A DNA stretch of 32,000 nt from Dehalococcoidia bacterium (GCA_030615765.1 JAUWYP010000011.1:21867-53866); one strand, 5' to 3'; positions 10,705 through 25,671 are shown, numbered from the stretch's first letter. Numbers and translations: made by a program. Notes: generated by a model from the sequence alone, not told the origin.

Positions 10705-10730
10705 CCTGCCCCCATGAACGGTACCACCCA

Positions 10731-11627
10731 CTATGTTAGTCCTGCCATGGCCTCTTGGAGGAGCGCAGAGGAGGCTGATGGCCATGGCAGCATCGCTTCC
10801 GGCGCCGGCGGCTCGTACCCGAGCGAGCTATGGGGACGAACGGCATTGTAGTGCCGTCTCCACTGCTCGCACAGCACCTTCGCCTCCAGCACCGTATCGA
10901 ACACCTCCACGTTCAGCAACTCATCCCGCAGCCTGCCGTTGAACGACTCGATGTAGCCGTTCTCCCACGGGCTGCCAGGCTCGATGTACAGCGTCTTCAC
11001 TCCTACCCGCGCCAGCCAATCCCGGACCACCCTCGCCGTGAACTCCGGCCCATTGTCTGACCGAAGGTACGTCGGAGTCCCTCGCAGAACGAAGAGCTGC
11101 GTCAGACGCCCCAGCACCTCATCACTGGTGATCCTCCTCGCCACCTCGATGGCTAGGCACTCTCGGCTGAACTCGTCTATGATCGTCAGCAGCCGCAGGG
11201 CACGTCCATCGCTGGTTCTCGCCAGCACGAAATCGTAGCTCCACACATGGTTCCGGTAGACCGGCCTCAGTCTGATGCAGGAGCCTTCGGTCAGCCAGAG
11301 CCGCTTCCGCTTGGGCTGCCTGGCCGGTACCTTCAACCCCTCCAGTCGCCACAGCCGCTCCACCCGCTTGTGGTTCACTGACCATCCCTCCTGACGCAAC
11401 ATCGCTGTCACCCGCCGGTAGCCGTAGCGGCCATACTGCGTTGCCAACTCTACCATCCGCCTCCGAAGTCTGGGCTCATCATCTGGAGAGCGGCATGTTC
11501 TCCTCTGGGTCGAACGCGCCTGCCCCAACACCCGGCATACCCGGCGCTCCGAGACGACCTGCCCGCCGAGCGCATCACGCACCCACGCGACCACCTGCCG
11601 TCTCTTCGCCGGGCTCAGAAGTTTCCC
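10731..11627 (-). CDS. IS3-family transposase OrfB (rve integrase core), expressed as an OrfAB fusion by -1 frameshift
   Basis: ...YRNHVWSYDFVLARTSDGRALRLLTIIDEFSRECLAIEV...LRSDNGPEFTA...YIEPGSPWENGYIESFNGRLRDELLN... shows the D, D and E(N)GY.ES.N motifs. The orfB frame is open upstream to the slippery heptamer: G-K-L-L-S-P-A-K-R-R-Q-V-V-A-W. The track ORF is 10731..11594. Confidence 0.85.
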   Translation of the reverse strand, partial: GKLLSPAKRRQVVAWVRDALGGQVVSERRVCRVLGQARSTQRRTCRSPDDEPRLRRRMVELATQYGRYGYRRVTAMLRQEGWSVNHKRVERLWRLEGLKVPARQPKRKRLWLTEGSCIRLRPVYRNHVWSYDFVLARTSDGRALRLLTIIDEFSRECLAIEVARRITSDEVLGRLTQLFVLRGTPTYLRSDNGPEFTARVVRDWLARVGVKTLYIEPGSPWENGYIESFNGRLRDELLNVEVFDTVLEAKVLCEQWRRHYNAVRPHSSLGYEPPAPEAMLPWPSASSALLQEAMAGLT

Positions 11628-11893
11628 TGGGCCGCCTCCTTCAGAATGGCGTTGTCCAACGACAGCTCAGCCACGAGCTTCTTCAGCCGGGCGTTCTCCC
11701 GCTCCAGCTCCTTCAGCCTCTTGGCCTGATCCCTCCCCAGCCCTCCATACTCCTTGCGCCAGCGGTAGTACGTCTGCTCGGTCACGCCGAGCTTCTTACT
11801 AACCTCGGGCACCGTCATCCCCCTGGCGAGCCCGACTTCCGCCTCCCTGAGCTTGTTGATGATCTCCTCCGGTGTGCGGCACTTCCTGCTCAT
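11615..11893 (-). CDS. IS3-family transposase OrfA (HTH + coiled coil)
   Basis: MSRKCRTPEEIINKLREAEVGLARGMTVPEVSKKLGVTEQTYYRWRKEYGGLGRDQAKRLKELERENARLKKLVAELSLDNAILKEAAQGNF. The ATG at 11893 lies inside the IS; the track's longer start at 11971 lies outside the IR. Confidence 0.85.
   Translation of the reverse strand: MSRKCRTPEEIINKLREAEVGLARGMTVPEVSKKLGVTEQTYYRWRKEYGGLGRDQAKRLKELERENARLKKLVAELSLDNAILKEAAQGNF
11621..11627 (-). promoter_or_regulatory. Putative -1 programmed ribosomal frameshift site G-GGA-AAC
   Basis: The minus strand reads cag gga aac ttc tga. The heptamer fits X XXY YYZ, sits 2 codons before the orfA stop, and orfB is in the -1 frame. Confidence 0.5.
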
Positions 11894-12070
11894 GCAGCTT
11901 GCCCCTTTCCCTGGTCCAGAACCCCTGTACACTAACATTGGAACTGGACTCGTTTTCGGGGGCAAGGTCACCCGCAGGTGCCCCGGATTGTCACTCAGCT
12001 ATCCCTGGATCTCACTGTAATCTGCTACTCGGTCACGCAGCCAGTCGATGCGTCCAGATGCTGCTCGCAC

Positions 12071-12099
12071 TTGACAGATTCTCTTTCGGGAACTAATCT
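12071..12099 (+). promoter_or_regulatory. sigma70-type promoter of the NLR operon
   Basis: TTGACA (12071-12076) - 17 nt - TAATCT (12094-12099). Followed by AGGAG (12112-12116) and ATG 12127. Confidence 0.55.
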
Positions 12100-12126
12100 C
12101 CACCTGCGGAAAGGAGCGCGTGACCG

Positions 12127-12300
12127 ATGGCGCGGGTGGGGGCTTCGGATGGCGGTAGCAGTCAGATCATGATCGAATTCGAGTGCGACTGTGGGAACGT
12201 AATTCGCGTCCCAAAGAGTCCTGCCCACAAAGAGGGCACGTGTCCAGGATGCCAGCGACTCACACGTGTTCCCTCGGGAGGAGAATACGTTGGAATTTGA
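12127..12300 (+). CDS. Small Zn-ribbon protein (57 aa; below the ORF-track cut-off)
   Basis: Own translation: MARVGASDGGSSQIMIEFECDCGNVIRVPKSPAHKEGTCPGCQRLTRVPSGGEYVGI*. Contains CxC...CxxC. SD AGGAG lies 10 nt upstream of ATG 12127; an alternative ATG is at 12169. The stop at 12298-12300 overlaps the start region of the next ORF. Confidence 0.5.
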   Translation: MARVGASDGGSSQIMIEFECDCGNVIRVPKSPAHKEGTCPGCQRLTRVPSGGEYVGI

Positions 12301-15300
12301 GGAGGCAACGTCCCTTGTTCTCCGCCTTCTCGAGGAGAAGGGGAAGGCGAAGAACAGTGAGATGATGAAGCTGTGCGGCAACGACCGAGAGTTGTTCGAT
12401 CGTGTCCGCGAAGACCTCATCTTCAACGACTTGGCTGAAGACAAAAAGGGCGTCGGGCTGGTCTACGTACGCCCGCCCTCCGAGGTGCCACCTCTTGAGG
12501 TTCCCGTGGCGGAGGACGTTCAGGAAGTAGTAGCTTCCGAGCCCAACATTCCTGACGCCGATGTCGTCATCAGTTATTCGCACAAGGACTTCGATCTCGC
12601 CCGCGAAATCGTGCGACAGCTCGAGAACGCAAGCGTCAAGCTGTGGTGGGATAAGACCGGCATCCGAGCTGGTCGGTGGCGCGAGAAGATCGTCCGCGCA
12701 ATACGATCCTCCAAGACTCTCACTGTTTTGTGCTCTATCAACTCGATGCAGTCTGAGGATGTTCGCACGGAACTTGAGTTAGCCGACTATTATAGGCGCA
12801 ATCGGCTGCCGCTTGGTCTCGATGAAACGGACTATCCCGAAAGTATCATCTACTGCCTGGTTAGCTGGCACAAGCACCGGGTTCCGATCATGGACCGCTC
12901 GGTCACCGAGTGGCTGCCGGAGGTTCTGGATGCCTTGGTAGCCCTCGGCGTTGCCTGCGACCGGCCGGCACTTCCACCCCCAGCCGTCGCTCCGGCTCCA
13001 ACCGCTGCTAAGGCTGTCAAGCCAAGCTGGCCTGAGCGGAGGGCTGTTCCCGTCACGGCTCCCCCGGTAGGCCGGCCGGGAGCGGGACGGAGGTTCCGCA
13101 TCTTCGTCAGCTCTACTTACGGCGACATGAAGGAGGAGCGGAACGCGCTCCAGCGCTTCGTCTTCCCACGGCTAAGGGAGCTTTGTTCGGTGCATGGGTG
13201 CCGGTTTGAGGCGGTCGACCTGCGTTGGGGCGTCAGCCAGGAAGCTGGCCTCGACCAGCAAGCCATGCCGATCGCCCTCCAAGAGATCGACCCATGCCGG
13301 CGCACGACGTCTCGGCCCAACTTCATCGTCCTCCTCGGCGACCGTTACGGCTGGCGCCCGCTGCCCTCCGAGATCCCGGCCCATGAGTTCGAGGAGATCT
13401 GCCGGCGTATCTCCGCAGACAAACAGCAGCGGCTGAAGGACTGGTATTTCAGGGACGATAACGCCGTCCCGCCCGACTACTGCTTGAAGCCGCGTGAAAT
13501 GGGAGGCGAGTACGAAGACTTCGCCATATGGGAAGCGGTGGAGCGCGACCTTCGTTCCATCCTGCTCGCGGCGGTGAAGGGCATGCCGCTTGAGGCTCAT
13601 GACCGTATGAAGTACGAGGCGTCGGCCACCGAACAGGAGATCGCCCAGGGGGCGTTACGGGTCCCGGACGCCCGGGAGCACGTCTACTGCTTCTTCCGGA
13701 CGATCAAGGATTTGCCACGAGATCTGAGCGGGAGGGACTTTGTCGATCTTGACAGCGAGGGCAATCCGGACATCGATGCGCGCAGACGACTGGAAGAGCT
13801 GAAGCACAAGCTACGTGGCCTCCTCCCCGATAACATCTACGATTACGAGGCAAGGTGGAACGACGGTGGCATCACCACCGATCACATCGACAAGCTGTGC
13901 GAGGACGTTTTCGACGCCCTCTCCCGGATCATCGAGCAGGAGATCGAGCGGCTTGAACAGGTTGACCCACTGGATAAAGAGATAGCAGACCACGACGACT
14001 TCGGCCAGGATAGAGCGAAGTTCTTCACAGGTCGGGCCGACATGCTTAGGAAGATCGGCGACTACGTCAAGAGTGGGGACAGTCAGCCGTTAGCGGTTTG
14101 GGGAGAGTCAGGTTCGGGCAAATCGGCGCTGATGGCCCGCGCGGCCCAACAGGTTCGGGAAGACCTACCGAATGCCGAGGTCGTCCTTCGTTTCCTCGAT
14201 GCGACGCCGGAATCCTCGGACGGGCGCGCTTTGCTCGACAGCCTGTGCCGTCAGATCTCCCGGGCCTACGGGGCGGACGAAGCCACAGTGCCCACGGATT
14301 ACAGGGAAGTGGTCGACGATTTCCCGAAGCGGCTAGCCCTGGCCACTGAGGAGAAGCCGCTCATCCTGTTCCTAGACGCACTGGACCAGCTGTCCGACGC
14401 CGAGGGGGCCCGTAGCCTCATCTGGCTGCCCGCTGACCTGCCCGAACACGTGCGCCTGATCGTCTCCACCTTGCCGGGCGAATGCCTGTCGGCGCTGGAG
14501 AGCAAGCTCTCGGACACGAGCCTCGTGGAGCTAAAGCCGATGCCGCCCGATGAAGGTCGCAAGCTCCTGGACCTCTGGCTGGAGGACGCGGGTAGGACCC
14601 TTCCGCAGCATCAGCGAGACGAGGTGCTCAGCAAGTTCGGGGCCGAAGGTCGGCCGCTCTACCTCAAGCTGGCCTTTGAGGAGGCCCGCCGCTGGAAGTC
14701 CTACACGGACCCCAGCGACACAGTACTAGCTGAGGGCATCCGGGGCATCATCCGTGAGAACCTGTTCGCTCGTCTCTCGTCGCCGGCCAACCACGGCAAG
14801 ATGATAGTCTCGCGCAGCCTAGGGTATCTGGTCGCGGCGAAGAACGGTCTATCCGAGGACGAGCTGCTGGACGTGCTGTCCAGCGATGCAGACGTCCTCT
14901 CCGACTTCAAACGTCGTTCGCCAATATCGCCGGAGGTGGAGAGGCTACCGGTGGTGCTGTGGTCTCGCCTGTACTTCGACCTGGAACCCTACCTGACAGA
15001 ACGCAGCGCCGATGGCGCCTCCCTGATGACATTCTACCACCGTCAACTCGGCGAGGTTGTGGCGGAGGACTACCTGGCCGGCGATGCGAAACCAGGGCGC
15101 CACCGCGCTCTGGCGGACTACTTCGATAAACAAGGGCTTGAAATCGAAGGCGCTCCCAATCTACGCAAGATGTCCGAGCTGCCATTCCAGCAGACGCACG
15201 GCGAGATGTGGGAAGAGCTCTTCGCCACCCTCACCAATTTCCCCTTCCTGGAAAGGAAGGCCGCCGATCTCGGAGTCCTGGAGCGCACAGACGCCGAGGG

Positions 15301-17548
15301 GAACGTGACGCGGACCCACACCGGCGTCTTCCTGCTCCAGGACGACTTCCGGCTGGCCCTGGAAAAGATGCCCGGCGACGGCGCCACGCCCGGGGGCAGG
15401 AGACCGCTGCTTGAGGTCTTCTCGCGAGCCCTGGGTCGCGAGAGTCACGTCCTTCATCGGCGGCCCGATCTCCTCTGGCAGCAGCTGTACAACCGTCTCC
15501 AGTGGTCGGAGGGTGGCCCCGAGCGGCTCGCGGCAGAGCTTCAACGCCGAACAAGGCCGGGCTCAGCGCCCTGGATGCGGGTCCGAACGCCTTCCCGGGA
15601 ATCGGAGGCGCTCATCCGAACGCTCGAGGGTCACTCTGGTCCGGTCAGAAGTTGCGTGCTGAGTCGTGACGGCTCCGTGGTCGTCTCAGCGGGCGACGAC
15701 TACACCGTCCGACTCTGGGATGCGACGACCGGCGCTGAGCGGGCCTGCCTCGTTGGCCATGACGATTGGGTCACCGGCTGCGCCATCAGCCGGGACGGCA
15801 GCTTCGTCGTATCGGCCAGCTCCGACCTCACCTTGAGGGTTTGGGATGCGGTCAGGGGGGTGGAGCGAGCGGTTCTCGGAGGCCACACGGCCGCGGTCAC
15901 AGCCTGCGCCATCAGCCCCGACGGCTCCTTCATCGTCTCGGGAAGTCGCGACGGGACGCTCAAGCTCTGGGACGTGGCCACCGGGAAGGAGCTTCGCACC
16001 CTTGAAGGCCATACGTCCGGTGTCAGGAGCTGCGCCATCAGCCCGGACGGCGCCTTCATCGTCTCGGCAAGCGAGGACGGGAGCCTCAGAATCTGGGACG
16101 CGGCTGGCGGGCGGGTACTCTGCACTCTCAAGGGTCACACCGACGCGGTCTTGGGCTGCGCGGTCAGCCCTGATGAGGCCTTCATCGTCTCGGCAAGTCG
16201 CGACGGGACGCTGAAGCTCTGGGACCCGTCGAGCGGGAGGGAGCTTCGCAGTCTCGAAGGCCACGGCGAGCCGGTTCGGGGCTGTGCCATCAGCGGTGAG
16301 GGCTCGTTCATCGTGTCGGCAGGCGACGACAGGGTGCTGAGGATCTGGGATTCGGCTACTGGCATCCAGCGAGCGACCCTCGTTGGCCACGCCGATCTTG
16401 TGACCGCATGCGCGGTGAGTTCTGATGGCTCGTTCGTCGTTTCCGCGAGTGACGACGGCACGCTCAAGGTCTGGGATATGACTCTCCTCCAAGAGCCCGC
16501 TGCCATCGAAGGCCACGACGGCGCAATCTCCGGCTGCGCCATCAGCGCTGACGGCGCGCTGGTAGCTTCGGCAAGTCAGGACGGGACCATCAAGGTCTGG
16601 GATTTGGCCACCGGGGTGGAGCGCGCAACTCTCGGCGGCCACATGGGCGGTGTTTTCAGTTGTACTTTCAGCCCGGACGGCTCCGCTCTTGTCTCGGCAA
16701 GTGACGATGGGACTCTCAAGGTCTATGATCCAGAGACCGGGGAGGAGCGGGCCACCCTGCGTGGCCACAGGGGCGGCGTCTTCGGCTGTGCAGTCAGCCC
16801 AGACGGTGCGTTCGTAGTCTCAGCCGGCGAAGACCGGACGCTCAAGCTCTGGGACATCGGCACCGGAATGGAGCGGGCAACGCTGGAGGGACATGTCTCG
16901 TCCGTCAATCGTTGTGCGGTCAGCCCGGACGGGTCGTTCGTCGTCTCGGCCAGCGATGACGAGACAGTCCGGATCTGGGATGCGGTAACCGGTCAGCAGC
17001 GCGCTCGGCTCGTCGGTCACGGCTCGTCGGTCTGGGGCTGCGCCGTGAGCCCTGATGCCGCGTTCGTCGTTTCAGCGAGTTGGGATGGGACCGTCAGGAT
17101 CTGGGACGTGAAGAGCGGCGAACAGCGGACTGTCCTGAACGGCCACACCGACCAGGTGTGGGACTGCTCGGTTACTCCCGACGGTGGGTTCATAGTCTCG
17201 GCGAGCCGGGACAAGACTCTGAGGGTCTGGGATACGTTCGGCCGAGAGTGCGCCTCGTTGCCGCTGCCCGGCGGAGCGCTGTCCGTGGCCCTACATCCCC
17301 ACCTGCCGTTCGCAGCCTGTGGCGACGAGAGCGGGAGCTTCTACCTCGTCGATCTTGTCGGCATCGAGTACGGGCCTATCATCGTCACAACGAGTCATGG
17401 AGGGACGGGACCGACCCTGCGCTGCCCCGCGTGTCACGGGATCTTCCCTCTCGAGCAGAGCTGGCTCGGAGCCGAGATGACGTGTCCAAACCGCGAGTGC
17501 GGCACTCCGCTCCGGGTCAACCCGTTCATCGCCGGCCTACAGCGATGA
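12266..17548 (+). CDS. NLR-like STAND protein: N-terminal wHTH-like region - TIR - DUF4062 - NACHT NTPase - helical module - 14 WD40 blades - C-terminal Zn-ribbon
   Basis: TIR: DADVVISYSHKDFDLAREIVRQLENASVKLWWDK...LCSINSMQSEDVRTELELA (aa ~97-190; conserved Glu169 at nt 12770-12772). DUF4062: RRFRIFVSSTYGDMKEERNALQRFVFPRL...NFIVLLGDRYGWRPLP (aa ~276-366). Walker A GESGSGKS at 14102-14125; Walker B LILFLDALDQ at 14360-14389. WD40: 13 canonical units GH..V..CA.SPDGSF.VSAS.D.TL.[VIL]WD plus 1 degenerate (15623-17365). C-terminus: LRCPACHGIFPLEQSWLGAEMTCPNRECGTPLRV. The start is GTG 12266 or TTG 12290, the latter with GGGAGGAG 6 nt upstream. Confidence 0.9.
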   Translation: MFPREENTLEFEEATSLVLRLLEEKGKAKNSEMMKLCGNDRELFDRVREDLIFNDLAEDKKGVGLVYVRPPSEVPPLEVPVAEDVQEVVASEPNIPDADVVISYSHKDFDLAREIVRQLENASVKLWWDKTGIRAGRWREKIVRAIRSSKTLTVLCSINSMQSEDVRTELELADYYRRNRLPLGLDETDYPESIIYCLVSWHKHRVPIMDRSVTEWLPEVLDALVALGVACDRPALPPPAVAPAPTAAKAVKPSWPERRAVPVTAPPVGRPGAGRRFRIFVSSTYGDMKEERNALQRFVFPRLRELCSVHGCRFEAVDLRWGVSQEAGLDQQAMPIALQEIDPCRRTTSRPNFIVLLGDRYGWRPLPSEIPAHEFEEICRRISADKQQRLKDWYFRDDNAVPPDYCLKPREMGGEYEDFAIWEAVERDLRSILLAAVKGMPLEAHDRMKYEASATEQEIAQGALRVPDAREHVYCFFRTIKDLPRDLSGRDFVDLDSEGNPDIDARRRLEELKHKLRGLLPDNIYDYEARWNDGGITTDHIDKLCEDVFDALSRIIEQEIERLEQVDPLDKEIADHDDFGQDRAKFFTGRADMLRKIGDYVKSGDSQPLAVWGESGSGKSALMARAAQQVREDLPNAEVVLRFLDATPESSDGRALLDSLCRQISRAYGADEATVPTDYREVVDDFPKRLALATEEKPLILFLDALDQLSDAEGARSLIWLPADLPEHVRLIVSTLPGECLSALESKLSDTSLVELKPMPPDEGRKLLDLWLEDAGRTLPQHQRDEVLSKFGAEGRPLYLKLAFEEARRWKSYTDPSDTVLAEGIRGIIRENLFARLSSPANHGKMIVSRSLGYLVAAKNGLSEDELLDVLSSDADVLSDFKRRSPISPEVERLPVVLWSRLYFDLEPYLTERSADGASLMTFYHRQLGEVVAEDYLAGDAKPGRHRALADYFDKQGLEIEGAPNLRKMSELPFQQTHGEMWEELFATLTNFPFLERKAADLGVLERTDAEGNVTRTHTGVFLLQDDFRLALEKMPGDGATPGGRRPLLEVFSRALGRESHVLHRRPDLLWQQLYNRLQWSEGGPERLAAELQRRTRPGSAPWMRVRTPSRESEALIRTLEGHSGPVRSCVLSRDGSVVVSAGDDYTVRLWDATTGAERACLVGHDDWVTGCAISRDGSFVVSASSDLTLRVWDAVRGVERAVLGGHTAAVTACAISPDGSFIVSGSRDGTLKLWDVATGKELRTLEGHTSGVRSCAISPDGAFIVSASEDGSLRIWDAAGGRVLCTLKGHTDAVLGCAVSPDEAFIVSASRDGTLKLWDPSSGRELRSLEGHGEPVRGCAISGEGSFIVSAGDDRVLRIWDSATGIQRATLVGHADLVTACAVSSDGSFVVSASDDGTLKVWDMTLLQEPAAIEGHDGAISGCAISADGALVASASQDGTIKVWDLATGVERATLGGHMGGVFSCTFSPDGSALVSASDDGTLKVYDPETGEERATLRGHRGGVFGCAVSPDGAFVVSAGEDRTLKLWDIGTGMERATLEGHVSSVNRCAVSPDGSFVVSASDDETVRIWDAVTGQQRARLVGHGSSVWGCAVSPDAAFVVSASWDGTVRIWDVKSGEQRTVLNGHTDQVWDCSVTPDGGFIVSASRDKTLRVWDTFGRECASLPLPGGALSVALHPHLPFAACGDESGSFYLVDLVGIEYGPIIVTTSHGGTGPTLRCPACHGIFPLEQSWLGAEMTCPNRECGTPLRVNPFIAGLQR
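15623..17365 (+). repeat. Tandem 126-bp WD40 coding repeats (moderately diverged)
   Basis: 14 blades at 42-aa periodicity. The repeats produce the long antisense artefact ORF 15686..16768(-). Confidence 0.85.
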
Positions 17549-19404
17549 CCCCCAAAGGCGGAATAGACACGCACGAGAGCGAACGTTCGAGCGGGACGCC
17601 TCCCCGCGCTCGGAGCGAGACGTTCTGGCGGGACCGTGTACGGCCTCTCTGGGAGGCCGTCGAGTGGCCGCTAGTCGGCCTCCTTGCGCTGCTCGCGCTG
17701 GGATTGGGGATCGACGGCTTCCGGCAGCACCTCGAGGCGAGCGGGCAATCGCACTCAGCGTCGGATGTGCTCTACCGGACGTTGCAGCTCTTCGTTCTCG
17801 AGTCCGGATGGGACTCGAGAGGCGTCAACTGGGAACTCGGCGTGGCGCGACTCTTGGCGCCTGCGGTGGCCGCGTACGCAGCCGTGCGAGCGCTGGGGGC
17901 GATCTTTCGCGAGCAGCTCCACTTGCTTCGGGTTCGCTCTTGGGGGAACCACGTCGTGATCTGCGGGTTGGGGCGAAAGGGCGTGCTCTTAGCGGAGGCG
18001 TTCCGCGCCCGCAAGGAACGGGTGGCGGTGATCGAGAAGGATGAGGAGAACAGTGCGGTCCGCAGGTGCCGCGACCAGGGCATCCCAGTCGTGATCGGCG
18101 ACGCGACGGACCTGGCCGTCCTCCGCAAAGCAGGAGTCCAGAAGGCCAAGTGTCTGATCTCCGTCTGCGGCGAGGACGGCGTTAATGCCGACGTGGCCGC
18201 TCATGCCCAGGAGCTGGTGGCCGCGAAGCCTCGTCGAAGCGGCTTCCTCCGCTCGTTCGTCCACGTCGTCGACCTCGAGCTGTGCACTCTGCTCAGAGAC
18301 AGGGTGGCTGTGGCCGGGAAGCGACACTCCTTCCGGCTCGAGCTCTTCAACGTCTTTGAGAGCGGCGCCCGCGGCTGGTTGAACGAGCACCTGCCCTTCG
18401 AGTCGGCTGGCCGAGAGGACGGCCGGCCGCATCTCCTCGTCGTCGGCGCCGGGCAGATGGGAAAGAGCCTCATCGTCGGGGCGGCGAGAAGGTGGCTCAC
18501 CCTCCATGCTGGCGCCGGCCCGCGCCCGCGGATCACCATCGTCGATCGGGAGGCGGAGCGGAGGAAGGACTCGCTACTCCTGCGCCACCCGCAGCTCGAG
18601 CAGGTCTGCGAGCTGGTCCCCGTCCGGACGGACGTCACCTGGCCGGAGTTCGAGGAGGGGAGGTTCCTCTTCGACGCCGAGGGACGCTGCGACGTGACCA
18701 CGATCTACGTCTGTCTCGACGACGACGTGCGCGGCCTAGCCGCGGGGCTGGACTTGTTGCAGCGGGTGCGTGAACACGGGGTCACGATCGTCGTTCGCAC
18801 CGCCGAGAAGGCGGGACTCGCGGCCGCGCTTGGGAGCGAGCGTCCAGGCGGCGACGGCTTGGAGCTCCTGCACGCCTTTCCGCTGCTCGACCTAACCTGC
18901 ACCCCGGAGCAGCTTCTCGGTGAGACCCCCAGCGAGCGCCTCGCCCGCACCATCCACGAGGACTACGTGCAGCGCGAAAGGGAAAAAGGCGAGACGGTCG
19001 AGACCAACCCCTCGATAGTCGAGTGGGACGAACTCCCCGAGAGCCTCAGGGAGTCGAACCGGCGACAGGCCGACCACCTCGGTGCTAAACTCAAGGCCGT
19101 CGGTTGCGGTAGCGCACCGCTGACCGGTTCGGAAGCGGAACCGATCGCCTTCTCCCCGGAGGAGGTGGAGTTGCTTGCGGAGCTCGAGCACAAGCGCTGG
19201 ATGGCCGAGCGCCTGTTCGAGGGCTGGACGCACGCGCCAGGCCCGAAGAATCTCGAGCGGAAAACAAGCCCCGCTCTCGTCGCCTGGGAGGAGCTGCCCG
19301 AAACCGAGAAGGAGAAGGATCGAGCGACGGCGGGCCAGCTGCCGGCGTGCCTCGCCCGCGCCAGCTTCCAGGTTTACCGCCTTGAGGAAGGAGCCGTGCG
19401 ATGA
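17545..19404 (+). CDS. Membrane protein: 2 TM helices (ion-channel-like) - TrkA_N/RCK Rossmann x2 - RyR domain x2
   Basis: The start ATG 17545 overlaps the upstream stop (ATGA 17545-17548); the track's longer 17080 start lies inside the NLR gene. TM helices: WPLVGLLALLALGLGIDGF and WELGVARLLAPAVAAYAAVRALGAIF. TrkA_N: HVVICGLGRKGVLLAEAF...VAVIEKD and HLLVVGAGQMGKSLIVGAA. RyR: ERLARTIHEDYVQREREKGETVETNPSIVEWDELPESLRESNRRQADHL and VELLAELEHKRWMAERLFEGWTHAPGPKNLERKTSPALVAWEELPETEKEKDRA. Confidence 0.85.
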   Translation: MTPKGGIDTHESERSSGTPPRARSETFWRDRVRPLWEAVEWPLVGLLALLALGLGIDGFRQHLEASGQSHSASDVLYRTLQLFVLESGWDSRGVNWELGVARLLAPAVAAYAAVRALGAIFREQLHLLRVRSWGNHVVICGLGRKGVLLAEAFRARKERVAVIEKDEENSAVRRCRDQGIPVVIGDATDLAVLRKAGVQKAKCLISVCGEDGVNADVAAHAQELVAAKPRRSGFLRSFVHVVDLELCTLLRDRVAVAGKRHSFRLELFNVFESGARGWLNEHLPFESAGREDGRPHLLVVGAGQMGKSLIVGAARRWLTLHAGAGPRPRITIVDREAERRKDSLLLRHPQLEQVCELVPVRTDVTWPEFEEGRFLFDAEGRCDVTTIYVCLDDDVRGLAAGLDLLQRVREHGVTIVVRTAEKAGLAAALGSERPGGDGLELLHAFPLLDLTCTPEQLLGETPSERLARTIHEDYVQREREKGETVETNPSIVEWDELPESLRESNRRQADHLGAKLKAVGCGSAPLTGSEAEPIAFSPEEVELLAELEHKRWMAERLFEGWTHAPGPKNLERKTSPALVAWEELPETEKEKDRATAGQLPACLARASFQVYRLEEGAVR

Positions 19405-22400
19405 CCGACGAAACTAGAAAGACGCGCGATCGGAGAGCGAGGGTGAGGACGCCGCGCTCGCAGCGCCGCGTCGTCGTAACCGGAGACGTGACGATGGACT
19501 GGAACCTCGCCCGAACGCGTCGAGCCGAAGGGGCGGGCGCGGCGTGGAACGCGGAGGACACGACCGAGGGCTACCTGCAGCTGGGCGGGGCGGCGCTGCT
19601 GGCGGACCTCATCCAGACGGTCGTCGATCGGTTTCCGCCGGGCGCCGAGAAGTTCGAAGTCCGCCGGGCCGGCCTGCCCGGTGGGTTCTCGCTGGAGGCT
19701 CCGGAGTTCCACCATTCCTTCGCGCTCTGGTCGGCCTACGAGTCAGCCGACACTCCCCGGGTCTGGCGAGTCAAGGAGTTCCTGGGGCTGGACCGCCCGA
19801 GCGCAGAAGCGCAGCCCGCACCCAAAGGGGAGCAGGTGGTCGATGACCCGGTCGAGGCGGACTTGGTGATCCTGGACGACGCGGCGCTTGGCTTCCGAGA
19901 CGATCGCGGGCTGTGGCCAAAGGTGATCAGGGAACCCGCTGGACTGCAACCGTGGGTCTTGCTGAAGATGGCGCGGCCCATCGCCCAGGGAGACCTGTGG
20001 GAGCACCTGCGGCAGCACTTCGCGGAGCGACTGATCGTCATCATGACGATCAACGACCTGCGCCTCTCCGAGGTACAGATCAGCCGCGAGCTCTCGTGGG
20101 AGCGAACGGGGGAGGATCTCGCCCGCGAGCTGGTGAGCAATCCGCGGGTGAACGCCCTCTCTCAATGCGCCCACGTGGTGGTGTCGCTGAACACCGACGG
20201 GGCGTTCTTGCTCTCCCGCCGGGATGAGCCAGATAGGCGGTCCCCGGGGGAGACGCGGCCCGAGTGCCACCTCTTCTTCGACCCCAAGACAATCGAGGGC
20301 GTATGGGCGCAGCAGTACCCCGGCGGGATGGTTGGCTACACCACCTGCCTGACTGCCGGTATCGCCCGCGAGCTCATGCTCATGCCTGCCGACCCCGATG
20401 TCCGCCGGGGCATCCAGCGGGGGCTCGCGGCGATGCGGACGCTCCACCTGGTCGGATATGGCTCACGGGAGCCCGACGCCCGGGCCGACCTAAAGTTCCC
20501 CTACGAGGACGTGGCCGATGAGCTGGCGCGAGAAAGGGAGCAATTCGCCGTCGCTGAGGTGCCTGCGCCACACGGCGGCTCGTGGAGGATTCTGGAGGCT
20601 CGTTACCCGGAGGGCCTCGAGCGGGTCGCCCGGCAGATCGCGCGCGAGGGGGCGGAGGTCGCGCTCGAGGGCGTGCCGCTCGGCCGCTTCGGCGATCTGT
20701 TGACGGTCGATCGCGCAGAGATCGAGGACTTCCGGAGCATCCGGTCCCTGATCCACGAGTACAGCCGCGGGCGGCCGACTCGTCCGCTCTCGATCGCGGT
20801 CTTCGGGCCGCCGGGCTCGGGGAAGTCGTTCGGGATCGTCCAGGTGGTCGAGTCTCTGCCCGGAGAATTCGAGCGGCTCGACTTCAACCTCTCTCAGCTC
20901 AACGAGCCGGCCGAGCTGCACGGCGCCTTCCACCAAGTGCGCGACGTTGCCCTGGCTGGCTGCATCCCGCTCGTCTTCTGGGACGAGTTCGACACGACCC
21001 TGGGCGGCACGCAGCTCGGCTGGCTGCGCTACTTCCTAGTGCCAATGCAGGACGGCACCTTCCAGGAAGGGGAGCTAATGCATCCCATCGGCCCTGCCGT
21101 CTTCGTCTTCGCCGGAGGCACGAGCCACCGGATGGCTGCGTTCGAGACGATGGCGATGAAGGACACGGGGGCGAAGGCGACCGACTTCCTGAGCCGGCTC
21201 AAGGGCTACGTCGACATCCTAGGGCCGAACCCCCGCGACGGGGACGCAGCCACTGATCCCTACTACCTGATCCGCCGGGCGATCTTGCTGCGCTCTGTGC
21301 TTCTGCGCGACCAGCCAGATTTGTTCGAGCTGCGGGATGGCAACAAGTTGCTGCGGATCGATTCCGGTGTGCTGCGCGCGTTCCTCGAGACGCGCGAGTA
21401 CCGACACGGAGCGCGTTCGATTAAGGCGATCGTGGCGATGAGCCTCCTCCACGGCAAGACGCACTTCGAGCGCTCCGCCTTGCCCGCGGCGGGGCAGCTC
21501 GACGTTCACGTCCAGGCAGACGACTTCCTCGCGCTGGCACAGCGACACGAGCCGGAGGAGGAGGCGCTCGAGGCGCTCGCAGAGGCCGCGCACGTCGTCT
21601 ATTGCGCGGGGAGGCTCGAGGAGGGTCACAGGTGGCGCGAGCGGGACGTCGCGTATCTCGAGCGCCACAGCCTTCTCAAGCCGTTTGCCGCTTCGGCGTA
21701 CGACGGCACGGAGATGCTACCCGCCCTCGTCTCCTGGGAGAACCTGAGCGGCGAGGACAGGGAGCAGAACCGCGGCCAGGTGCGCCACATCCCGAGCCGT
21801 CTCGAGGCCCTCGGTTACGTCATGCGGAAGGCGCGCGGCGGCGTCGACCCCACTGCTTTCGTCCTCTCTAGGCGCATGCTTGAGCTCCTCGCCGAACAGG
21901 AGCACGAGCGCTGGCTCTGGGCAAGGCTGCGAGCGGGCTGGCGCTACGGCGCGATCAGGAACAACCGCCGGAAGCTCCATCCGGCGCTGCTGCCCTGGCG
22001 TCCGCTCTCGCTGGAGGAGCGCGAGCAGAGCTATGGGGTCTGCGAAGACCGCCTGGGGCCGGGCGAGCTTGTTGAAGGCGACAAGGAGAAGGACCGCGAG
22101 GCCGTGCGCGAGATGACACAGATCGTCGCCGCGGCAGGGTGCGAGATCGTGAAGGTGCGTGAGCCGGCCGTGATCGTCGGGGTAACGGGCCACCGCATCC
22201 TGGCTGAGGTCGAGAAGATCAAGAAGGGAATAGGGGAGGCGCTCGATCGGGTCGAGCGGTCGTTCCCTGGGAAGCCCCTCACGGTGATGTCCGCCCTGGC
22301 CGAGGGTGCCGACTGCCTCGTGGTGAAGCGGGTACTCGCGCGCTCGACCGGAGGCCTCGTCGCCGTTCTGCCGCTGGCCGCAGCCGACTACGAGACCGAC

Positions 22401-22730
22401 TTCGAGTCAGATGAGTCCAAACAGGAGTTCCGAAACTTGCTGGCTCAGGCAGACGAGACGATCGAGCTGCCGCCCGCTGCCACTCGGGAGGCGGCCTACG
22501 AGGCGGTGGGCGAGTACATCGTCGATCACTGCGACGTGCTCGTCACCGTCTGGGACGGCCAGGGCGCGCAGGGCCAGGGCGGGACAGGCGGGGTGGTGGC
22601 GCGCGCCCGCGAGCGTGGCCTCCCGATCGCCTGGGTGCACGCCGGCAACCGCAAGCCCGGAACGAACGAGCCGACCTCCCTGGGCACTGAGCAGGGAATG
22701 GTGACCTTTGAGCGTCTCGAGCCCGCCTGA
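19401..22730 (+). CDS. Multidomain protein: degenerate PfkB/ribokinase-like domain - AAA+ ATPase - RyR x2 - C-terminal SLOG (LOG/DprA/YpsA-like) domain
   Basis: ATG 19401 overlaps the upstream stop (ATGA 19401-19404). PfkB-like order of motifs: RVVVTGDVTMDWNL / LGGAALLADL / LIVIMTINDLRLSEV / AHVVVSLNTDGAFLLS / PGGMVGYTTCLTAGIAREL; the GAGD catalytic motif is not conserved. AAA+: Walker A GPPGSGKS (20805-20828), Walker B PLVFWDEFD, and YRHGARSIKAIV (sensor-2-like). RyR: MLELLAEQEHERWLWARLRAGWRYGAIRNNRRKLHPALLPWRPLSLEE...DKEKDREAV, plus an upstream copy (aa ~722-808). SLOG: VIVGVTGHR...SALAEGADCLVV...LVTVWDGQGAQGQGGTGGVV (22167-22655). Confidence 0.85.
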   Translation: MTDETRKTRDRRARVRTPRSQRRVVVTGDVTMDWNLARTRRAEGAGAAWNAEDTTEGYLQLGGAALLADLIQTVVDRFPPGAEKFEVRRAGLPGGFSLEAPEFHHSFALWSAYESADTPRVWRVKEFLGLDRPSAEAQPAPKGEQVVDDPVEADLVILDDAALGFRDDRGLWPKVIREPAGLQPWVLLKMARPIAQGDLWEHLRQHFAERLIVIMTINDLRLSEVQISRELSWERTGEDLARELVSNPRVNALSQCAHVVVSLNTDGAFLLSRRDEPDRRSPGETRPECHLFFDPKTIEGVWAQQYPGGMVGYTTCLTAGIARELMLMPADPDVRRGIQRGLAAMRTLHLVGYGSREPDARADLKFPYEDVADELAREREQFAVAEVPAPHGGSWRILEARYPEGLERVARQIAREGAEVALEGVPLGRFGDLLTVDRAEIEDFRSIRSLIHEYSRGRPTRPLSIAVFGPPGSGKSFGIVQVVESLPGEFERLDFNLSQLNEPAELHGAFHQVRDVALAGCIPLVFWDEFDTTLGGTQLGWLRYFLVPMQDGTFQEGELMHPIGPAVFVFAGGTSHRMAAFETMAMKDTGAKATDFLSRLKGYVDILGPNPRDGDAATDPYYLIRRAILLRSVLLRDQPDLFELRDGNKLLRIDSGVLRAFLETREYRHGARSIKAIVAMSLLHGKTHFERSALPAAGQLDVHVQADDFLALAQRHEPEEEALEALAEAAHVVYCAGRLEEGHRWRERDVAYLERHSLLKPFAASAYDGTEMLPALVSWENLSGEDREQNRGQVRHIPSRLEALGYVMRKARGGVDPTAFVLSRRMLELLAEQEHERWLWARLRAGWRYGAIRNNRRKLHPALLPWRPLSLEEREQSYGVCEDRLGPGELVEGDKEKDREAVREMTQIVAAAGCEIVKVREPAVIVGVTGHRILAEVEKIKKGIGEALDRVERSFPGKPLTVMSALAEGADCLVVKRVLARSTGGLVAVLPLAAADYETDFESDESKQEFRNLLAQADETIELPPAATREAAYEAVGEYIVDHCDVLVTVWDGQGAQGQGGTGGVVARARERGLPIAWVHAGNRKPGTNEPTSLGTEQGMVTFERLEPA

Positions 22731-23073: not shown

Positions 23074-25671
23074 ATGACGCACAGCGATGACGGCAACCCG
23101 GCTCAACCGGCACCGTCCTCCCTAGCCGAGCACCGCGAGCAGCTCGCCCTCCTTTCGCGCACGCTGGAGCGCGAGGCGCACATCTTGGCGCGGGAGCCGG
23201 AGGTGCTGGCCTCGCACCTGCACAACATGGTCTACCTGGACGAGGGCGATGATGGCCCCGCGGGCCCGCTGCTGGCTCGGGCACGCGACGCCCTGTCCGG
23301 ACGCCCCTGGCTGCGCCTCATCAACCGGCCACAGGTCGGAATAAGCCGCCGGGCACTGATCCGTGTCTTGGGCGACAGAATCGGTGCCACGTGTCTGGCT
23401 TGGTCATCCGACGGGCGAGTGCTGGCCGTCGGAACCATAGAGGGAATAGCACTGTGGATGGCAGATGGGATACCGGGTCCGGGCCTAGATCTTCGAGTCA
23501 GCGTAGAGACGCTGATCTGGTCACCAGACGGTCGACAGATCGCGTGGACGGACGAAGTTGGGAAGGCCCATGTGTGGACGCCCGGAACAAGCGAGCATCC
23601 AAGAAGCGTACAGGGCCACGGCCGAGACCAGGTCACATCGGTAGGCTGGTTGGATAACGAGACGCTCTTTCTCGCCACCGAGTTCGACGGCATTTTCGTC
23701 TGGCGTCTAGGAGCTCCAGGTCTGCGCCCCAGAGTGCTTGTGAGACAGAAAGAAGATGAGAGCGTGGAGACAGCTGCAGTGAGCCCGGATGGGAAAATGC
23801 TTGCCTGGACCGAGTACTCGAGTGTCTACATCAAGTCTCTTATCCCGCCCGGCCGTCGCACCTGGCTCGGTGCGTGCCACGATGTCGTTAAGTACTTGTC
23901 GTGGTCTGTGGATTCAATGTACCTTGCCTGCGCGGGGGACGGCTATGGGGTCACGATCTGGAGCGTTGAGACGAGGGCACCATTGACTATCGACGACGCG
24001 GCCCCTCCCCTGGCGTGGTCGCCGCGCGAATACACGTTGGCGTCCGGAGGGGATGGAACAGGAATTTACCTGTGGGATGGCCGCACCGGGAAGCCTACGT
24101 CGGTCCTCTACGGCCATCTCGCCTGGCTTGAGAGTCTAGCTTGGGCTCCAGACGGAAGGACTCTAGCATCAGGCAGCCACGATGCGGTGCGTTTGTGGGA
24201 CGCGGAGACGGCTACAAGGTGGCCGGGAACCAGGCAGAGGAAGCTTACCGAAATCCAGCGGCGTCGCTTGCCGGAGGTGAAGGATGTCGAGTGGTCCTCC
24301 GATGGGCAAGCATTTGCCTCAACCCATTACGAAACAAGCCGAAGGAAATCAGCTGTCTGCGTCTGGAAGGGGAAAACCGGTGACGAAGTCGCGATTCGTG
24401 AGGGTCTCGGGTTTGGCCAGCCCCGAATTGCCTGGTGTCCCGCTATTGATGTCCTATCGATGGCAATTGATTTCAACCTCATCTCGTGGGCTATTCCGGT
24501 CGATAGGCCGCTCAAAGGGCACGAAGGCGAAATCGATGCCCTGGCGTGGTCACGGCGCGGCGACTTGCTGGCCTCCGGTGATACAAAGGGAACGACACGC
24601 ATTTCCTGTGCCGCTAGCGTGTTTCATCTAGCTAAGCGTATGGGGGTAGATCAGTGGGCATCGCGATTGGGCGACGAGGATGATTGGACATGGGAGACCG
24701 GCGAAGGGTCCATCTGCAACTTGGAGTGGTTAGGAGAGGACGAGGTGTTGGTGGGGTTCGTACTCGGCCCGGGAATAGACATGGAGGCAGCAGAAGGTGG
24801 CGGTGCCTCGTATGTGAATCCACAGAAAGCGGCCATTTGGCATCTTGACTCAGGACGTCAACACCTGATCCCAGTCGGTTACGGGAGCGGCCGTCGCGAC
24901 GCCTTGAGGTGCTCGCCCGTCGGGTATCGCTTTGCAGTGTCGCATCTGAAACACCCCAAGAAGGAGCCGACAAGCCTGCAAGATGCCATGGCGCCTCTGC
25001 AGCATCTTACATCGATATGGGACGCTCGAGGTCTGCGCTGCGAGGTGGAGTTGGAGGGCGACGTAGCGACGTGCGGGTGGTCTCCAGACGGCTCTATACT
25101 GGTACTAGAGCGCGAAGATGAGTTGGTTCTTTGGGACAGCACTAGGCGGAAACCACGTGAGGTCTTGAAAGGCCATGGGCAGATTCAGGATGCAAGCTGG
25201 TCACCGAACAGCAGCTCATTTATATGGACCTCCGTTGATGCGAGCGTATGGATGTGGAACACGACGAACGGTGTAACGCGTCTGCTCCCGCCAGCTAGCG
25301 GGGGAGCGTCACGTCTTCTGTGGGCTCCTGACGGTGAGAAGTTGGTTTTGGCTGGCGTCTATGAGTACGACGCTGACTCCGAAGAGGACTTCCGAGAAGA
25401 GCAGTCAAGTCCTCGGTTGCCTCAAGTGGTGGACTTGTGGGATATGATCTCTGGCAGTTCAGTCGCGCGTGCGTACTGCCTCTCCCCTGTTCTTGCCCTC
25501 CAGTTCAGCTCGGACGGCCGCATCTTGCGGGCAGCGGACGATGGCAGCGCCACCGGCAACCGGCCCATCCCCTACCTCTTCGAGCTGTGCAACATCGAGA
25601 TAGGTTCGCCGGCGGTGCGCCCTGTCTCGCCACAGGAAACGCCGGGCGTGGAGCGAAATGGCGAAGCTTGA
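23074..25671 (+). CDS. Divergent WD40/beta-propeller repeat protein with an NLR-type pre-WD40 helical N-terminus and no NTPase domain
   Basis: The N-terminus LSRTLEREAHILAREPEVLASHLHNMVYL...RPWLRLINRP parallels LGRESHVLHRRPDLLWQQLYNRLQW...APWMRVRTP of the NLR. Degenerate WD units follow: WSPDGRQIAWTDEVGKAHVW, VSPDGKMLAW, LYGHLAWLESLAWAPDGRTLASGSHDAVRLWD, LKGHEGEIDALAWSRRGDLLASGD, LKGHGQIQDASWSP. Confidence 0.8.
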   Translation: MTHSDDGNPAQPAPSSLAEHREQLALLSRTLEREAHILAREPEVLASHLHNMVYLDEGDDGPAGPLLARARDALSGRPWLRLINRPQVGISRRALIRVLGDRIGATCLAWSSDGRVLAVGTIEGIALWMADGIPGPGLDLRVSVETLIWSPDGRQIAWTDEVGKAHVWTPGTSEHPRSVQGHGRDQVTSVGWLDNETLFLATEFDGIFVWRLGAPGLRPRVLVRQKEDESVETAAVSPDGKMLAWTEYSSVYIKSLIPPGRRTWLGACHDVVKYLSWSVDSMYLACAGDGYGVTIWSVETRAPLTIDDAAPPLAWSPREYTLASGGDGTGIYLWDGRTGKPTSVLYGHLAWLESLAWAPDGRTLASGSHDAVRLWDAETATRWPGTRQRKLTEIQRRRLPEVKDVEWSSDGQAFASTHYETSRRKSAVCVWKGKTGDEVAIREGLGFGQPRIAWCPAIDVLSMAIDFNLISWAIPVDRPLKGHEGEIDALAWSRRGDLLASGDTKGTTRISCAASVFHLAKRMGVDQWASRLGDEDDWTWETGEGSICNLEWLGEDEVLVGFVLGPGIDMEAAEGGGASYVNPQKAAIWHLDSGRQHLIPVGYGSGRRDALRCSPVGYRFAVSHLKHPKKEPTSLQDAMAPLQHLTSIWDARGLRCEVELEGDVATCGWSPDGSILVLEREDELVLWDSTRRKPREVLKGHGQIQDASWSPNSSSFIWTSVDASVWMWNTTNGVTRLLPPASGGASRLLWAPDGEKLVLAGVYEYDADSEEDFREEQSSPRLPQVVDLWDMISGSSVARAYCLSPVLALQFSSDGRILRAADDGSATGNRPIPYLFELCNIEIGSPAVRPVSPQETPGVERNGEA

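Follow-up and report, generated by a model that had tools for sequence, protein, structure and literature searches.

A PfkB-like/AAA+/RyR ATPase family linked to TIR domains, and its SLOG-bearing member in a Dehalococcoidia operon

The window analysed here is a stretch of 32,000 nucleotides from a Dehalococcoidia bacterium (GCA_030615765.1, JAUWYP010000011.1:21867-53866). At positions 19401..22730 (+) it holds an open reading frame (ORF) for a protein of 1109 amino acids (aa), composed of a PfkB-like domain, an AAA+ ATPase module, two RyR repeats and a SLOG domain. The identical protein was called on an independent Logan contig, and a search of 5.8 billion protein clusters returned more than 2000 homologues, the best sharing 77% identity. 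These homologues rule out a chance or spurious ORF and establish a real conserved gene. The gene is translationally coupled to those of a 1760-aa TIR-containing protein (12266-17548) and a 619-aa membrane protein (17545-19404), the three being joined by ATGA start/stop overlaps; a Shine-Dalgarno-like GGAAGGAG at 19386-19393 precedes the start at 19401. A scan for promoters and terminators across the operon gave counts near the shuffled expectation.

Domain architecture of the 1109-aa protein

Only the RyR repeats of the 1109-aa protein were recognised by sequence models, the P-loop giving sub-threshold AAA matches, and no model of NCBIfam or PADLOC matched the protein. As sequence models failed for the N- and C-terminal domains, both unassigned ends were predicted by AlphaFold2 and compared with the PDB by Foldseek.

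The N-terminal domain (~aa 22-385; 19464..20555, +) adopts the PfkB/ribokinase fold and is kinase-dead, as judged by the predicted model, Foldseek, hhalign and the family invariants. The model of aa 18-400 has a mean local confidence (pLDDT) of 89.7 and a predicted TM-score (pTM) of 0.91, and shows the ribokinase-like α/β fold with its β-sheet lid. Structural similarity search with this model yielded 187 PDB matches at E<=1e-3; all 50 of the matches listed are ribokinase/PfkB-family kinases, among them pseudouridine kinase, LacC, HldA and ribokinase, with a best E-value of 7.5e-10 and TM-scores of 0.39-0.59. At the sequence level the domain had no Pfam match at E<=10 and none in NCBIfam or PADLOC, its family profile found no kinase among PDB sequences, and tblastn with E. 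coli RbsK detected no PfkB kinase in the 1.2 Mb of locus sequence.

An alignment of 47 diverse members, down to 28% identity, showed that G28, D29, D33, G62, G63, R123, D160, R166, K189, R221, S232-W233-E234, E299, G308 and G312 are invariant or nearly so. The N-terminal substrate motifs are kept, as GDVTMDW (aa 28-34) and GGAA (aa 62-65). In hhalign against RbsK (reference sequence identical to 1RKD), the former aligns with GSINADH, which contains the ribose-binding Asp16, and the latter with GGKG; D33 is conserved in at least 90% of members, G62 is invariant and G63 reaches at least 90%. Both phosphotransfer motifs are replaced. At the site of NXXE lies (N)DLR (aa 217-221), where hhalign sets D-L-R-L on N-E-T-E; the position of the motif Glu is hydrophobic or variable in the family, and R221 is invariant. 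At the site of GXGD lies GGMVGYTT (aa 308-315), aligned with DTIAAGDT, so that the catalytic D255 of RbsK falls on Thr/Ser (T315). The six columns around the second Gly hold no conserved acidic residue in any register. RbsK alone aligned over only the N-terminal 42 columns, and a profile of five E. coli K-12 paralogues (RbsK, PsuK, FruK, PfkB and YeiI) aligned over the C-terminal 83 columns with a probability of only 22%; because of this low probability the residue mapping is indicative only, although it is backed by the column conservation. Loss of the NXXE and GXGD motifs rules out an active sugar kinase. The retained sugar-binding half of the site, together with four invariant basic residues, would fit either a pocket for a ribose-phosphate ligand or a repurposed active site.

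The AAA+ module with its lid (~aa 415-700; 20643..21500, +) was delineated from the family alignment and from profile comparison with the PDB. By its motifs and profile matches it appears to be of the classical-clade type, with intact Walker A (GPPGSGKS, aa 469-476) and Walker B (VFWDEFD, aa 525-531) motifs. Candidate further elements are sensor 1 (AGGTS, aa 571-575), the Arg finger in SRL (R599) and sensor 2 (HGARS, aa 669-673). Among 39 diverse members, K475 of Walker A and D531 are invariant, and D528, E529, the sensor-1-like Thr of GGT, the Arg of SRL and the Arg of HGARS are each conserved in at least 90%. The family profile matches the classical-clade proteins Mpa/ARC (5e-5), Hsp104 NBD2, Rpt2 and p97 D2, with E-values up to 3e-2, as well as Vps4, and the alignment includes the pre-Walker-A segment “VP..f.d” typical of this clade. 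At pore loop 1, KFVG of Mpa aligns with SQ[FLM], here SQL, so that a hydrophobic residue is retained without the motif itself. PF00004 scored 17.4 bits on the 1109-aa protein against a cutoff of 21.2, and several homologues carry precomputed PF00004 matches. There is also weak, sub-threshold similarity to nSTAND_NTPase5. A MoxR-type AAA was ruled out, the bpMoxR match covering the P-loop only, at 17-18 bits.

The RyR (R12-type) repeat pair (~aa 720-905; 21558..22115, +) was assigned by Pfam PF02026, by PDB RyR matches, which include the RyR-domain protein 35tm, probably RyDEP, and by residue mapping. PF02026 scored 67.9 bits over the full length and 78.3 bits for aa 715-915 alone (cutoff 27.4), in several stretches that correspond to two repeats. 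PF02026 domains were reported to bind 2'/3'cADPR (cyclic adenosine diphosphate ribose) at nanomolar affinity or to hydrolyse it (PMC13232231, a preprint of May 2026); in RyDEP, His75 and Asp117 form the catalytic dyad, Trp78 stacks on the adenine and His100 contacts the phosphates (PMC13232231). Repeat 1 of the 1109-aa protein is degenerate, keeping only the first His (AAHVVYC) and carrying QNR. Repeat 2 has the full ligand set, namely H835-x-x-W838, H860-P and the Asp of KDR (aa 897-899), and a family-specific insertion of ~20 aa before KDR. Across 90 RyR pairs of the family and its neighbours, the His, Trp and Asp positions are conserved in at least 90% and the second His in 60-90%. This mapping was based on motif spacing, an alignment with RyR2 R12 and the text of the RyDEP paper rather than on alignment with the RyDEP structure. 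Altogether, the RyR pair is probably a third ligand pocket and not a protein adaptor.

Stand-alone RyR proteins with a single repeat and of 94-96 aa adjoin the core in some related loci (L035:9689-9973, L038:9673-9960, L064:13554-13838 and L077:1356-1646). These host-encoded proteins resemble RyDEP, and those of L064 and L077 keep all four RyDEP ligand residues.

The SLOG domain (~aa 922-1085; 22164..22655, +), followed by a conserved C-terminal tail to aa 1109, was identified from the AlphaFold2 model, Foldseek and the family alignment. The model of aa 905-1109 has a pLDDT of 91.9. Its best Foldseek match is B. subtilis YpsA (PDB 2nx2), with an E-value of 1.3e-8 and TM-scores of 0.63/0.71, followed by DprA, TM1055, the ThsA SLOG domain with 3'cADPR (PDB 7uxs, E 2e-4), the N-terminal domains of TRPM5/8/2/4, the molybdenum cofactor (Moco) carrier protein MCP and LOG. 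No Pfam model of a SLOG family (DUF1273, LOG, DprA, LSDAT and others) matched at E<=10, and the domain is a separate family within the SLOG superfamily. Thirty-four aligned members, fused or stand-alone, share GVTGHR, S-LAEGADR and WDG...G-GGT, of which EGAD (G969, A970, D971) and GVTGHR are invariant or nearly so. GxD/E is the substrate-binding signature of the YpsA clade and was tested by mutagenesis in YpsA (PMC6459960). At the position of the catalytic Glu in PGGxGTxxE of LOG, inspection by eye found Ile or Val, which would argue for a binder rather than a LOG-type hydrolase.

A preliminary description, made from the DNA sequence alone, had proposed this same succession of a catalytically degenerate PfkB-like domain, an AAA+ ATPase, two RyR repeats and a SLOG sensor. 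All motifs quoted there were located at the expected places, including PGGMVGYTTC (aa 307-316), GARSIK (aa 670-675), GVTGHR (aa 927-932), ALAEGAD (aa 965-971) and GGTGG (aa 1060-1064), and all four assignments were borne out, by AlphaFold2 and Foldseek at both ends, by the family profile for AAA and by Pfam for RyR. The kinase is indeed degenerate as far as the canonical mechanism goes, with the NXXE motif and the GXGD Asp absent family-wide. By contrast, the suggestion that the RyR pair serves as a handle by which the protein acts on the RyR-bearing membrane protein is less likely than a role in ligand binding, as repeat 2 keeps the cADPR-binding residues; if the pair is a pocket, the 1109-aa and 619-aa proteins would share a sensor module rather than dock onto each other.

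The operon, the family and its gene neighbourhood

The first gene of the operon (12266..17548, +) encodes a protein of 1760 aa in which Pfam recognises TIR_2 (aa 100-186, 55.6 bits), DUF4062 (aa 278-367, 40.9 bits) and NACHT (aa 609-774, 46.7 bits), followed by an NWD1-like winged helix-turn-helix, ~14 WD40 repeats and a Cys-rich C-terminal tail. The TIR catalytic Glu (VRTELELA) lies in a column conserved in at least 90% of 54 neighbouring TIR domains. This protein is a candidate for both invader sensor and signal generator. Its tail, CPACHG...CPNRECG (window 17440-17545), stands after the WD40 array and resembles a zinc ribbon.

The second gene (17545..19404, +; the Logan gene call agrees) encodes the 619-aa protein, which combines transmembrane (TM) helices, a TrkA_N/RCK domain (2.6e-20) and two RyR repeats (1.2e-12) in Pfam. 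The two TM helices flank a pore-helix-like segment, DVLYRTLQLFVLESGWD, with a conserved LQLfxLeSG motif. The RyR repeats are arranged as in the 1109-aa protein, and repeat 2 keeps EHKRW and EKEKDR, with TSP in place of HP. The protein is a candidate membrane effector or channel. PADLOC gave only partial or generic TIR matches for the 1760-aa protein and none for the 619-aa protein. Within aa 1-130 of the latter (window 17545-17940), a conserved pattern D.lY.tLQLf.leSG....P.pW.LeiARfLAP lies between the TM helices; read as a motif only, this inter-TM segment is reminiscent of the pore helix of a K channel, with a non-K+ filter and some likeness to the CASTOR/POLLUX type.

The surroundings of the operon hold further genes of related make-up. 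An IS3-family transposase (HTH_21, rve, rve_3) is encoded at 10731-11594 (-), ~670 bp upstream of the TIR-STAND gene; insertion sequence (IS) elements also occur in locus L084. Downstream, an 865-aa WD40 protein (23074-25671, +) and a 966-aa WD40-TPR protein (27009-29909, +) are followed by a second DUF4062-NACHT gene, which starts at 30028 (+) and runs off the window end at 32000. A linker, “RRPDLLWQQLYNRLQW”, is common to the 966-aa protein and the part of the 1760-aa protein that follows NACHT, and it recurs in weaker form in the 865-aa protein. These three downstream genes look like split or paralogous STAND modules.

By sequence comparison, the PfkB-like-AAA-RyR unit is the core of a large unnamed family to which the 1109-aa protein belongs. 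A phmmer search of 1.84 billion cluster representatives with the PfkB-like domain gave 1541 clusters at E<=1e-3 and 1094 at E<=1e-10, counted at 50% identity; in the listed matches that cover the domain start, it begins within ~45 residues of the N-terminus. The proteins fall into length classes of ~690-760, 850-980 and 1050-1190 aa. They occur in Acidobacteriota, Chloroflexota, Actinomycetota, Chlorobiota (e.g. Chlorobium ferrooxidans DSM 13031), Planctomycetota, Gemmatimonadota, Cloacimonadota, Firmicutes, Proteobacteria and methanogenic archaea. A fungal homologue from Hortaea werneckii (P0196, 869 aa; 35 member sequences) shows 29% identity in an alignment of 712 aa that spans the larger part of the PfkB-like domain, AAA module and RyR region. 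It has ENFE instead of DEFD at Walker B and may reflect horizontal transfer into this black yeast. Several proteins of ~690-760 aa (P0203, P0206, P0198, P0212 and others) have the PfkB-like and AAA domains and no Pfam RyR match; this class may be a RyR-less subfamily or one with a divergent C-terminus.

All four domains are present in 74 of the 120 closest homologues, and ~40 end directly after the RyR pair. In 80 loci from one-genome-per-species data, the core is the constant unit; SLOG, where present, is fused to it in five cases and elsewhere lies directly downstream, upstream or on the other strand. A single in-frame stop separates the RyR C-terminus (...AIVKS*) from the SLOG frame in L020 (~7037), L027 (~11213) and L070 (~12635), exactly where the fusion present in the window would be split. 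In ~9 loci the N-terminal SLOG is joined to C-terminal two-TM modules, SLATT_3/DUF4231 and then SLATT_1 where scored. Such SLOG-SLATT genes stand beside the core in L033 (1231-2841), L016 (4813-6552) and L060 (17127-19058), as well as in L029, L052, L062, L080 and L069; SLATT_1 lies above the Pfam cutoff in the first three; in the rest it falls short of that cutoff or is missing. For a further long SLOG protein there was no SLATT match.

The head of the chassis is also exchanged. A TIR-AAA-RyR architecture recurs in P0122 and P0149, and in P0182 TIR is fused to RyR, with two stretches of each of TIR_2 and RyR. In a Methanobacteriaceae locus, a 660-aa TIR-AAA-RyR protein (L059:12712-14694, +) is encoded 144 bp downstream of a core gene (~10001-12570); here TIR replaces the N-terminal pseudokinase on the same chassis.

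The gene neighbourhood was assessed in 44 loci, each with a complete core and a flank of 3 kb or more to either side of it. ORFs were called in all loci, and neighbours were scored with iteratively built domain hidden Markov models (HMMs), which replaced single-linkage clustering, as the latter merged neighbour proteins into one multidomain cluster; 10 of 10 sampled matches of the local TIR HMM were Pfam TIR_2 above cutoff. A TIR-fold gene, meaning one with TIR_2 or DUF4062, is found no more than 5 kb from the core in 25 loci (57%) and no more than 1 kb from it in 17. SLOG, fused or separate, is present in 22 loci (50%), a TM-RCK(-RyR) protein in 10 (23%) and a solo small RyR protein in 6; at least one of TIR-fold, SLOG and TM-RCK is found in 35 (80%). 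The distances of TIR-fold neighbours peak below 500 bp, with 20 of 50 closer than this. The enrichment of TIR near the core is argued from this distance profile and from the domain fusions, the counts being raw and not a formal statistic. In agreement with these counts, precomputed Pfam annotation of independent contigs gives TIR_2-WD40, core plus SLOG and SLATT in L085, where the SLATT gene lies 112 bp downstream on the opposite strand, and core, TrkA_N-RyR and TIR in L087, near toxin-antitoxin genes (HicA, PIN and Phd). In L008, L009, L054 and L057 the core is accompanied by a TIR gene alone. At some loci a GH3 glycoside hydrolase gene stands upstream: directly before the core in L086 (7198-8982, gap ~20 bp) and, in L055 (7489-9660), before a 104-aa ORF that precedes the core; a third locus belongs to the same neighbour cluster.

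These loci support the link to TIR signalling that the preliminary description had drawn, with a TIR-fold gene within 5 kb of the core in more than half of them, and its idea of SLOG as a sensor gains from the fusion of the same SLOG family to SLATT membrane effectors elsewhere. The protein had also been called an unusual fusion; the four domains stand, but the arrangement is the less common one in a family whose very widespread core has three domains and whose SLOG is detachable. The C-terminal domain does model as a SLOG fold, the N-terminal domain does not retain a complete kinase site, and the homologues do not occur mainly in non-defence contexts.

Proposed function and alternative explanations

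We propose that the 1109-aa protein is probably a ligand-regulated AAA+ ATPase in TIR-based, Thoeris-like nucleotide-signalling conflict systems. In the proposed mechanism, the TIR-DUF4062-NACHT-WD40 protein would detect an invader through its WD40 array and oligomerise, upon which its TIR domain, with the catalytic Glu, would convert NAD+ to a signal derived from ADP-ribose (ADPR). Homology to tested proteins suggests that this signal would be read by RyR repeat 2 and the YpsA-clade SLOG. The kinase-dead PfkB-like domain may read it too, because it keeps the ribose-binding Asp, the GG loop and the four invariant basic residues. Ligand binding would then switch the assembly of the AAA+ ring or its ATPase cycle. 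We speculate that the N-terminal PfkB-like head could be the output module, because TIR holds the same position in the paralogous TIR-AAA-RyR chassis. In parallel, membrane effectors with the same sensor modules, TM-RCK-RyR here and SLOG-SLATT elsewhere, might collapse the membrane; a combination of TIR and SLATT is an experimentally validated system that responds to canonical cADPR, type VII Thoeris (10.64898/2025.12.03.692087). The core could itself be an effector, given the loci with TIR and core only and the exchange of PfkB for TIR.

Several observations weigh against this assignment. The core has no recognisable toxic effector domain, the protein drew no PADLOC match, and the alignment behind the kinase residue mapping is of low probability. 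Of the phage RyR proteins tested, one in nine was a hydrolase, and two of eight homologues were non-binders (PMC13232231), so that conservation of the RyR residues does not guarantee binding. Eight of the 44 loci (18%), five of them from Chlorobiaceae, have no TIR-fold, SLOG, TM-RCK or solo RyR partner. In the two Chlorobiaceae loci with annotated neighbours, the core adjoins IleRS, a DksA-type zinc-finger gene and FtsX (L042) or SecA (L044). Given these partner-less loci, the core can exist alone and the family is not exclusive to defence islands, and part of it may have a non-defence role. Moreover, STAND-WD40 genes are abundant in these genomes and could inflate the co-occurrence figures.

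The absence of a toxic domain from the core, together with membrane effectors in many loci, is what an alternative role in managing the signal would draw on. Here the protein would buffer, degrade or reset the TIR-made signal, setting the activation threshold or ending the response. We consider this unlikely, although the His and the Asp of the RyDEP catalytic dyad are both retained in repeat 2 and solo RyDEP-like RyR proteins adjoin the core in L035, L038, L064 and L077. A more specific version, in which RyR is a RyDEP-like glycosidase or sponge, SLOG a binder, and TM-RCK-RyR and SLATT the killers, appears equally doubtful. The loci with TIR and core only (L008, L009, L054 and L057) would be left without an effector, and a buffer would have no obvious use for an AAA+ motor or for a PfkB-like head that is conserved.

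The conserved head itself invites the second alternative, that it is an enzyme with a non-canonical active site acting on a metabolite that contains ribose (NAD+, ADPR, a nucleotide or the signal itself). The number of conserved charged residues is unusually high (D29, D33, R123, D160, R166, K189, R221, E234 and E299), the ribose-binding elements are kept, the PfkB-like domain is always N-terminal, and an NAD-consuming TIR takes its place on the AAA-RyR chassis. Nevertheless, neither PfkB phosphotransfer motif appears in any register of the alignment, no lidded PfkB fold with another chemistry was found as a precedent, and the charged residues could serve ligand binding alone. We regard such an enzyme as improbable, and its further form, in which AAA+ assembly switches the activity on and the head is the catalytic output of the system, as similarly so.

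A housekeeping regulator, that is, an AAA+ remodelling factor responsive to nucleotides or NAD metabolites and only sometimes co-opted by TIR/STAND loci, appears quite unlikely: the housekeeping surroundings of L042 and L044, the six Chlorobiaceae loci in all without detected partners, the partner-less L084, the GH3 genes (directly upstream in L086 and in the L055 neighbour cluster, three loci), the fungal homologue and the role of YpsA, the nearest SLOG, in cell division and oxidative stress (PMC6459960) would agree with it, whereas the TIR-fold, SLOG or TM-RCK partners in 80% of the 44 loci, distances that peak below 500 bp, the TIR-RyR and TIR-AAA-RyR fusions, and the SLATT effectors, toxin-antitoxin genes and IS elements nearby would not.

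Relation to known systems and significance

The signalling role proposed for the 1109-aa protein places it closest to Thoeris (ThsB TIR with ThsA SIR2-SLOG; types I-XI, especially type VII, TIR with SLATT/ThsH). Both have a TIR with a catalytic Glu beside sensor proteins for a nucleotide signal, the SLOG fold is common to ThsA and the 1109-aa protein, and SLATT effectors occur in related loci. However, there is no SIR2, Macro or caspase effector here, the TIR is embedded in a giant DUF4062-NACHT-WD40 STAND protein, and at the centre stands an AAA+ ATPase that bears RyR repeats and has a PfkB-like head. The preprint on Thoeris types mentions neither an ATPase nor RyR (10.64898/2025.12.03.692087).

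The repeat pair belongs to the same Pfam family as RyDEP (PF02026; PMC13232231), and its repeat 2 keeps the His, Trp, His and Asp positions. RyDEP is a small phage-encoded homodimer for immune evasion, whereas the RyR module here is encoded by the host and consists of two tandem repeats, one of them degenerate, with an insertion of 20 aa. It is fused to an ATPase, is genomically linked to TIR and is presumably a receptor rather than an anti-defence factor. YpsA/DUF1273, the best structural match of the SLOG domain, resembles it in the GxD/E signature and in the TG[HY][RK] loop that follows strand 1; by contrast, no DUF1273 Pfam match was obtained here, and YpsA pairs with GpsB in Firmicutes. 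With the ribokinase/PfkB kinases the head has in common the fold, including the β-sheet lid, and the N-terminal Gxxx(x)D and GG motifs, but the family lacks NXXE and the GXGD Asp, lies outside the sequence models and is fused to AAA+.

The overall layout, which joins an enzymatic head at the N-terminus and a signal-binding domain at the C-terminus to an oligomerisation module, is that of TIR-STING, TIR-SAVED and ThsA-type effectors, and the sister TIR-AAA-RyR fits this logic directly. In contrast to those effectors, the oligomerisation module here would be an ATP-hydrolysing AAA+ ring and not a passive filament, and the head of the main family is a pseudokinase. Full-text literature searches found no description of the architecture; their coverage excludes the SLOG survey of Burroughs et al. 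2015, whose supplement may hold it.

The superfamily of each domain is already known, as is the logic that leads from TIR through a signal to a sensor-effector. What is new is, first, the PfkB-like-AAA-RyR family, for which Pfam, NCBIfam and PADLOC offer no model. Further new elements are an AAA+ protein headed by a kinase-dead ribokinase fold, the genomic tie and occasional fusion of host RyR domains to TIR domains, and the presence of RyR-type and SLOG-type pockets and a channel-like RCK protein in one operon. The 1109-aa protein is most likely a new Thoeris-like signalling component. The family carries up to three nucleotide-pocket domains on one ATPase, with a broad phylogenetic spread, and it offers natural experiments in the fused and split SLOG, the exchange of TIR for PfkB and the SLOG-SLATT fusions. 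It also makes directly testable the question, raised in May 2026, of whether cellular RyR domains recognise cADPR isomers as RyDEP does.

TIR-to-cADPR signalling is common to bacterial, plant and animal immunity, and RyR and TRPM2 are ADPR/cADPR-responsive Ca2+ channels of animals that bear such ligand modules, R12 and SLOG, respectively. In a single TIR operon here, R12-type RyR and SLOG modules stand together with a channel-like RCK membrane protein, so that ligand modules of the RyR and TRPM types are found beside a channel-like protein in a concrete prokaryotic setting. We tentatively suggest, as a possibility short of an expectation, that host RyR (R12) domains are natural receptors of TIR-made cADPR-type signals in a widespread Thoeris-like class built on the PfkB-like-AAA-RyR ATPase. 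If true, the family would provide a new signal-gated AAA+ effector with a repurposed ribokinase fold as its output head, and would point to a prokaryotic immune origin for the control of ion channels by cADPR and ADPR.

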